Below are positions 26,875-26,958 of a DNA stretch of 64,000 bases, one piece after another. Positions within the stretch are counted from its first letter, which is position 1. Each line of letters begins with the position of its first letter. A model generated the notes under the pieces. That model saw only the letters and a program-made list of their open reading frames with translations. It did not search any database and had not been told where the DNA came from. The stretch comes from Octopus sinensis. Lineage: Eukaryota. The DNA lies in contig NC_043001.1 in NCBI RefSeq assembly GCF_006345805.1, positions 118,296,001 to 118,360,000 of the forward strand, given 5' to 3'. Position numbers and translations under genes: made by a program.

Positions 26875-26958
26875 GCTGTTTTATCGAAAGCATATATTGT
26901 TGTTAAATGCTCAAAATACGAGAGTAGAAAAACAGCCAACAACTGATGAAGGGTCGTT
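26875..26958 (+). ncRNA. Rearranged hammerhead ribozyme motif, copy A (decayed), within an approximately 200-bp repeat (26868-27075)
   Basis: GCUGUUUU/AAAACAGC helix, stem III CAUAU/AUACG (one mismatch), triplet AUA, stem I UUGUUG/CAACAA, CUGAUGA at 26943-26949. GAAA is mutated to AAAA at 26913. Confidence 0.65.

Follow-up and report, generated by a model that had tools for sequence, protein, structure and literature searches.

A predicted split-core hammerhead ribozyme and its decayed copy in a high-copy non-coding repeat of Octopus sinensis

Window copies and their repeat families

The window, by which we mean the whole 64,000-nucleotide stretch of Octopus sinensis DNA analysed here, carries two neighbouring copies of non-coding repeats arranged tail to tail, one of family A on the plus strand and one of family B on the minus strand; within the window, no ORF belonging to the element was found. 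The family A copy begins at about 26868, the upstream part present in other copies being absent, and is directly preceded, at 26500–26850, by what we take to be a high-copy, SINE-like repeat. Its parts are the following.

26868–27075, plus strand: 5'-truncated family A copy ending in (TA)n, corresponding to the 3' part of a non-coding tandem monomer of ~770–890 bp.
26870–26874, plus strand: proposed 5' strand of stem II, with G10.1 at 26870; pairs with 26908–26912 (5/5 Watson–Crick).
26876–26882, plus strand: 5' strand of the interaction helix (P0 in the original prediction); pairs with 26929–26935 (7 Watson–Crick).
26891–26896, plus strand: stem III strand, with U16.1 at 26895, H17 at 26896 and the predicted cut after 26896; 26891–26895 forms four of five pairs with 26916–26920, with an A–C mismatch at 26892.
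26897–26902, plus strand: stem I strand after the predicted cut; pairs with 26937–26942 (6 Watson–Crick).
26908–26920, plus strand: 3' strand of stem II (26908–26912), decayed GAAA (A at 26913) and stem III partner (26916–26920).
26929–26949, plus strand: 3' strand of the interaction helix, stem I partner and CUGAUGA (26943–26949).
26950–26955, plus strand: 3' strand of helix X, whose partner, with hairpin Y, lies upstream of 26868 in complete copies and is missing here.

With the upstream strand of stem II included, 22 of 23 pairs across the four helices of this copy are Watson–Crick. In 200,000 shuffles that left the core motifs in place, 22 pairs were never reached (mean 6.1, maximum 16), a test which, as the helices were picked from the same sequence, measures non-randomness and not function. 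The hammerhead blocks of 26870–26955(+) stand in the non-circular order S-G-C, and the interaction helix has one strand on the 3' side of stem II and the other on the 5' side of stem I, as in type SGC/CSG.

The original prediction had described 26875–26958 as a rearranged hammerhead, and its sequence and coordinates match our analysis. P0, stem III and stem I are real, with the pairs listed above, as are CUGAUGA, the AAAA that stands at 26913–26916 in place of GAAA and the AUA triplet ending at 26896; AUA is a natural hammerhead cleavage triplet according to the available text of PMC1636495. The same source of ideas foresaw G at 26892 and 26913 in related copies, and G is indeed found in 79/100 and 94/100 relatives, respectively, when 100 of the 184 exact-pattern copies are read by eye. 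A query-biased set of 45 copies gave 17 G, 21 A, 1 T and 6 unscored at the first position and 31 G, 12 A and 2 unscored at the second. As relatives mostly carry G at both positions, the window copy is the decayed one. CpG decay was correctly proposed as far as G12 and one stem III pair are concerned, both lost by CpG-type changes; the proposal overlooked the 5' truncation that removed X' and Y, the partner of helix X being absent from the 90 bases upstream of the copy. With G12 lost, stem III mismatched and X' and Y missing, the window copy is predicted to be inactive. As truncation has taken away the 5' strands of X and Y, restoring only the two G residues may be insufficient for activity, and a suitable RNA would also have to include ~45 further upstream bases of a complete copy. 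An 8-bp P0 and a zero-length P0'–I' junction had also been claimed, and these are private to the window copy: position 26875 is G here and A in 35/36 related copies, and the junction measures 1 nt in the majorities of families A and D, 0 in B, 2 in N and 3 in C.

Between the interaction helix and stem III, at 26883–26890, the window copy contains a second UCGAA word, which in families C and D occupies the same place within a 10–12 nt palindrome; it may be left over from a duplication, serve as a dimer contact or form a competing hairpin. The second GAAA-like word upstream was considered as an alternative core and rejected, as neither a stem III nor a stem II partner was seen by eye.

The family B copy, which the original prediction compared with the family A copy over 27335–27410, indeed has a homologous layout on the minus strand; the zero-length junction that the two were said to share is not general among families. 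Its parts, and a second fragment of the same family, are as follows.

27114–27459, minus strand: family B copy, tail to tail with the family A copy, with the whole fold present.
27335–27453, minus strand: complete predicted family B ribozyme.
27449–27453 (X'), 27436–27448/27417–27429 (Y) and 27412–27416 (II), minus strand: upstream helices of the family B ribozyme.
27401–27410 (interaction helix), 27392–27396 (III), predicted cut between 27391 and 27390, and 27385–27390 (I), minus strand: family B ribozyme.
27373–27376 (GAAA), 27340–27346 (CUGAUGA) and 27335–27339 (X), minus strand: family B ribozyme.
33147–33430, minus strand: second family B fragment, running from CUGAUGA into the start of the next monomer.

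Four contig-level runs, whose type is unrecorded, cover the family B copy with a depth falling near the predicted cut; ends, strand and level are not resolvable from them, and the fall in depth is given no weight as evidence.

Both families are abundant in the 2.7-Gb host genome, with 1873 first-look candidates for family A (40 scored, 91–97% identity) and 2950 for family B (40 scored, 96–99% identity). Pattern searches of the same genome returned 1380 matches for family C against 5 in the control, and 1494 for families D and A together against 0. Families A and B consist of non-coding monomers of ~770–890 bp that occur singly, 5'-truncated, as partial tandems and as inverted pairs, with (TA)n flanks. 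Tandem copies of family A are spaced 773–892 bp apart at loci L003, L004 and L030, and tandem non-coding units with one hammerhead motif each number four in L113 and two in each of L003, L033 and L074. The 3' ends are fixed at a family-specific distance after CUGANGA, namely ~230 nt in C, 230–243 or 300 nt in B and 260–287 nt in A. Partial tandems, 5' truncation with inversion, a fixed 3' end with an optional tail and a (TA)n target together make up a Penelope-like insertion pattern, and the same pattern is recorded for Penelope-like elements (PLEs) in the available texts of PMC8557442 and PMC11167929.

The monomer start in families A, B and C (e.g. L003:1890–1900, L033:1898–1912 and window 33147–33160(-)) shows a 5' splice-donor-like word followed by a long pyrimidine-rich stretch. 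The two together recall the 5' UTR intron of PLEs, and the family B 3' ends of the longer class are located there. Further diverged families with the same strand order were seen at L165(-), L209(-) 7574, L216(-) 1673, L217(-) 4164 and L221(+) 4159. Other elements of the window, labelled by eye, are a 364-aa non-LTR RT-like frame at 15777–16871(-) and a 214-aa transposase-like frame at 46170–46814(-); a 2.2-kb (ATAC)n array occupies 29229–31440.

Fold of complete copies

Complete copies present their strands in the order X', hairpin Y, II, interaction helix, III-cut-I, short linker, II'-GAAA-III', interaction helix, I'-CUGANGA and X. Stem II is formed by the strand before GAAA and the strand just 5' of P0, with 5–6 Watson–Crick pairs and no G–U in all six majorities (A, B, C1, C2, D and N) and with two-sided changes between families in 3/5 pairs. 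Helix X joins the strand after CUGANGA to a strand further upstream through 5–6 Watson–Crick pairs in five of the six majorities and 3 in N, the family A majority having 6 plus one G–U. Hairpin Y occupies the space between X' and II, and in the family majorities the X'|Y, Y'|II and A9|X junctions are without a spare base.

A motif from the coral-region records described below retrieved 120 metagenome loci, which allowed the pattern to be followed beyond the octopus. Among octopus instances, X-Y-II is present in 74/127, with both scored junctions flush in 62 of these 74. In its loose form, alone, it is also matched by 10/131 controls from viral contigs, where the pattern scan yielded chance matches only and served as a control; with stems I and III added, it is found in 57/127 octopus and 12/92 metagenome instances and in 0/131 of the chance GAAA..CUGANGA matches. 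In 25 full-length metagenome copies chosen from 109, 94% of cells are paired over 44 pairs. Two-sided changes between two metagenome subfamilies affect helix X (2), the interaction helix (1) and stem I (1), and stem II is without two-sided variation inside this set; such covariation counts rest on few subfamily splits and few independent events, and two family N rows are misaligned in alignment A2.

The claim that a rearranged hammerhead-type fold is kept across divergent repeat families is borne out by compensatory changes in stems I, III and P0. The stem I sequence, for instance, differs in families B, C, D and N with pairing retained. Stems I, II and III all adjoin the core with covariation support, stem II doing so only with its upstream strand. 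CUGANGA, GAAA, the U16.1–A15.1 pair and a non-G H17 are kept in 6/6 family majorities, from which the window copy departs by its A at 26913. Single-strand folding does not show this pseudoknotted fold and was left unused.

With stem II pairing upstream, P0 sits exactly at the position of the SGC/CSG interaction helix. A four-way junction is likely to split the core at the A9/G10.1 step: X and Y would stack as one helix and meet stem II and the core there, which would keep A9 beside G10.1. The fold of complete copies would then be that of a non-circular hammerhead of type SGC/CSG with its ends moved to the A9/G10.1 step. Helices X and Y had been overlooked in the original prediction, and the 'extra A' noted there after CUGAUGA is better read as the first base of helix X, a separate helix.

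Relation to Naiad elements and source of the enzyme

Family N (254 matches in the host genome, 0 in the control) shares the fold of families A–D in unrelated sequence and, by eye, corresponds to the 3' end of Naiad_Obim/Naiad_Ovul in the supplement of PMC8557442. In 5/20 loci it lies 0.5–1.4 kb behind RT remnants, with RVT_1 matches (E about 1e-3 to 1e-4) that are below the cut-off. The Naiad ORF, with its N-terminal GIY-YIG, CxC motif and C-terminal RT, was not encountered in families A–D, and in family N it is represented by RT remnants only.

In its available text, Craig et al. 2021 describes no canonical hammerhead for Naiads and proposes no fold; its 'HHR_half_core' flag marks eight Naiads with separated core halves, Naiad_Ovul among them (PMC8557442). 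This flag describes the same separated core halves that we find, and (TA)n targets, partial tandems, inverted 5' pieces and an optional tail are further likenesses between the octopus families and the Naiads as described there; unlike those Naiads, families A–D are without an ORF (PMC8557442). From the supplement we read by eye matches 1–53 of 62 for CTGATGA, 3–30 of 43 for CTGAAGA, 1–15 of 25 for CTGAGGA and 1–15 of 23 for CTGACGA. The places read belong for the most part to ORFs or to canonical motifs. Three near-identical coral-region records show the split fold clearly, as do four other records from outside the cephalopods; two more show part of it, and a plain type CSG with an interaction helix occurs in six Naiad records, several of them from nematodes, one further record resembling SGC proper (all by eye). 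A Naiad RT fragment gave no match to the 120 metagenome loci.

The repeat is likely to be a non-autonomous Penelope-like retroelement of Naiad type. An autonomous element sharing sequence with families A–C was not found in the host genome; a 2195-bp unit in L111 was considered as an autonomous partner and discarded, as it proved to be a family C monomer into which an unrelated RT-bearing sequence has been inserted. The Naiad copies of the octopus are decayed, family C is young, and two PLE families with intact RT and GIY-YIG frames of 775–782 aa are present in the host genome. These observations, together with the fact that the link from families A–C to family N is one of fold alone with no sequence similarity, favour an alternative in which the ribozyme is rightly predicted and families A–D are unrelated to Naiads, having been mobilised by or derived from another retroelement such as the intact C-terminal GIY-YIG PLEs. 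We consider this possible and rather unlikely: the UTRs of both intact PLE families show no BLAST match to the A–C monomers, one of them has its own type I-like motif, and the strand order and flush junctions of families A–D are the same as in Naiad 3' UTRs. A Naiad origin and present mobilisation by another PLE are compatible.

The younger of these PLE families (L202:2287–4611(+), L203, L204 and L206) has an upstream ORF, an intact 775-aa frame with RT and C-terminal GIY-YIG and many near-identical copies. Near L202:5105–5165 its 3' UTR contains a small type I-like hammerhead, with CCGAAGA as the core of the youngest copies and CTGAAGA as that of older copies. The second family (L209:2511–4856(+), L210 and L211) encodes 782 aa with RT and GIY-YIG and also has an upstream ORF; a simple scan of its UTR recognised no hammerhead.

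Starts of inserted copies and comparison with known hammerheads

Among 109 metagenome copies, 22 lie at contig edges and were excluded. Of the other 87, 48 start 8–19 nt before GAAA compared with 8 in the equal window at 20–31 nt; 1 starts at 32–60 nt, 27 further up and 3, probably by chance, at 6–7 nt. The predicted cut lies 17 nt before GAAA, where 9 copies start exactly, with 17 starting within 17–19 nt. Their 3' ends share a single position, about 68 nt beyond CUGAUGA. In the host genome, among the matches listed and read by eye, the 5' end of copies next to (TA)n falls on the cut or 3' of it at 22/25 family C and 24/30 family B loci, counts that are inflated by TA microhomology at the linker, which favours such joints. 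A reverse-strand count gave 129 against 39 for an AT-rich control zone 60 nt upstream, a rough comparison, as the anchors differ. When the upstream side was left free, starts at or after the cut numbered 0/28 in family C (where the pattern needed an intact linker), 1/20 in family N and 3/30 in the A/D set. The counts cover the B, C, N and A/D sets and the metagenome copies.

This pile-up at the predicted cut provides indirect evidence of cleavage in vivo, and its simplest reading is that the RT ran off a cut RNA end. In the mechanism that we propose, the ribozyme would cut tandem transcripts into monomers, and a Penelope-like reverse transcriptase acting in trans would start at a fixed site about 230–290 nt downstream. 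Running off the cut 5' end, it would give short copies that begin at the cut; copying uncut or circular RNA, it would give long and tandem copies; either product would be inserted at (TA)n. We put at roughly three in four the probability that the window stretch is a decayed, 5'-truncated copy of a self-cleaving split-core hammerhead, predicted from sequence, in a high-copy non-coding repeat, the complete copies of which would cleave tandem transcripts into monomers copied by a PLE RT in trans.

The fold could also be real and no longer, or never, catalytic, as a structured RNA built from hammerhead parts that serves as a protein-binding site, an RT stop or an RNA protection. A split core is unprecedented, and 5' ends could be shaped by RT stalling or microhomology; in addition, the available text of PMC11167929 reports that a lizard PLE does not need hammerhead cleavage for insertion in vitro. 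We nevertheless regard this explanation as improbable, since CUGANGA, GAAA, the U16.1–A15.1 pair and the non-G H17 persist in all six families as the helices change, and in the metagenome set, which is without (TA)n flanks, the 5' ends crowd at the bond predicted to be cut.

The block order S-G-C differs from the circular order C-G-S of types I, II and III, and circular permutation of a tandem type I motif was rejected as a source because it cannot yield S-G-C. Searches against Rfam gave nothing at gathering score in the window and no hammerhead family among 75 matches at E≤1 on five loci, all of low complexity. In known SGC and CSG ribozymes, which cleave in vitro, stem I is connected to stem II by a short linker and, at the distal ends of the two stems, by a helix (PMC10085705). 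The octopus form resembles them in the cyclic block order S-G-C, the UUA-type linker, the distal helix, all conserved core bases and a size of 80–120 nt, and differs in that its stem II 5' strand lies far upstream of CUGANGA, X and Y bridge A9 and G10.1, and its setting is animal chromosomal repeats (Eckert et al. 2023, PMC10085705). The layout that defines types SGC and CSG is present except for an uninterrupted block C, in which the stem I strand, CUGANGA and the stem II strand follow in a row. In the available text of Eckert et al. 2023, CUGANGA and the adjacent stem strands were assumed to be inseparable, with no insertion over 1–2 nt known; SGC is known there only from metatranscriptomes and CSG only from two soil metagenome sequences, and no non-circular permutation is given for known organisms except one GCS candidate (PMC10085705). 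Similarly, Perreault 2011 lists, as far as the available text extends, only core insertions of 1–2 nt (PMC3088659). Judged by its sequence features, the element works like an SGC/CSG hammerhead yet fails one defining feature of those types.

The remaining alternative, to which we give little credence, is a plain type SGC hammerhead whose stem II uses the strand after CUGAUGA with an extra A, the upstream pairings being an off-state or a folding aid. Four such stem II pairs are possible in families A, B, C and D, truncated copies like that in the window could fold in this way, and the CChMVd (+) hammerhead tolerates an extra A between A9 and G10.1 in the available account (PMC1636495). The split fold is like that hammerhead in that the A9/G10.1 step takes an insertion (there A10), and unlike it in that the CChMVd (+) insertion is one base, not a two-helix junction, in a topology of circular type (PMC1636495). 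Stem II of the original prediction was of this kind and does not hold: in the window copy it reads G–C, G–U, G–C, U–G and then a C–U mismatch, 0/3 pairs show a compensatory change, and its score lies inside the shuffled range (331 of 500). Of the four pairs, two are G–U in 5/6 families, family N forms only 2 pairs, at least 4 Watson–Crick pairs occur in just 2/127 octopus and 0/92 metagenome instances, and P0 is without a counterpart in the published SGC layout, yet is exactly the interaction helix in the split model.

Within the literature searched, which comprised papers outside subscription, neither a split-core hammerhead nor a precedent for an A9/G10.1 four-way junction came to light, and permuted hammerheads were not found reported for Naiads or for cephalopods. 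Animal non-LTR retrozymes were reportedly described in earlier work of de la Pena. According to the available text of a recent preprint (bioRxiv 10.64898/2026.07.22.740005), these retrozymes are likewise non-coding tandem monomers with one hammerhead each and are proposed to be non-autonomous PLE derivatives; their hammerheads are of type I, sought with type I descriptors, unlike the split non-circular fold and the ~800 bp monomers of the octopus.

The evidence leans, somewhat less firmly, towards a broader reading, in which non-circularly permuted hammerheads would have their natural genomic home in Naiads across the invertebrate phyla. Many of these Naiads, along with the thousands of octopus retrozyme copies, would have a seventh topology, with a split core and a four-way junction in place of the A9–G10.1 bond, and the ribozyme would cut in vivo and leave its cut site as the 5' end of inserted copies. 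If true, this would overturn the published claims that only six hammerhead strand orders exist, block C being uninterruptible, and that Naiad elements lack hammerheads. It would also give non-circular permutations, hitherto drawn from environmental sequence of unassigned origin, a place in animal chromosomes with copy numbers in the thousands, and make the pile-up of 5' ends a genomic record of ribozyme action during Penelope-like retrotransposition. The open A9/G10.1 junction would then represent a natural attachment site for modules on a hammerhead.

As a separate observation made by eye, several Naiad CSG motifs closely resemble the two soil-metagenome CSG ribozymes of Eckert et al., which may derive from Naiads of soil invertebrates.
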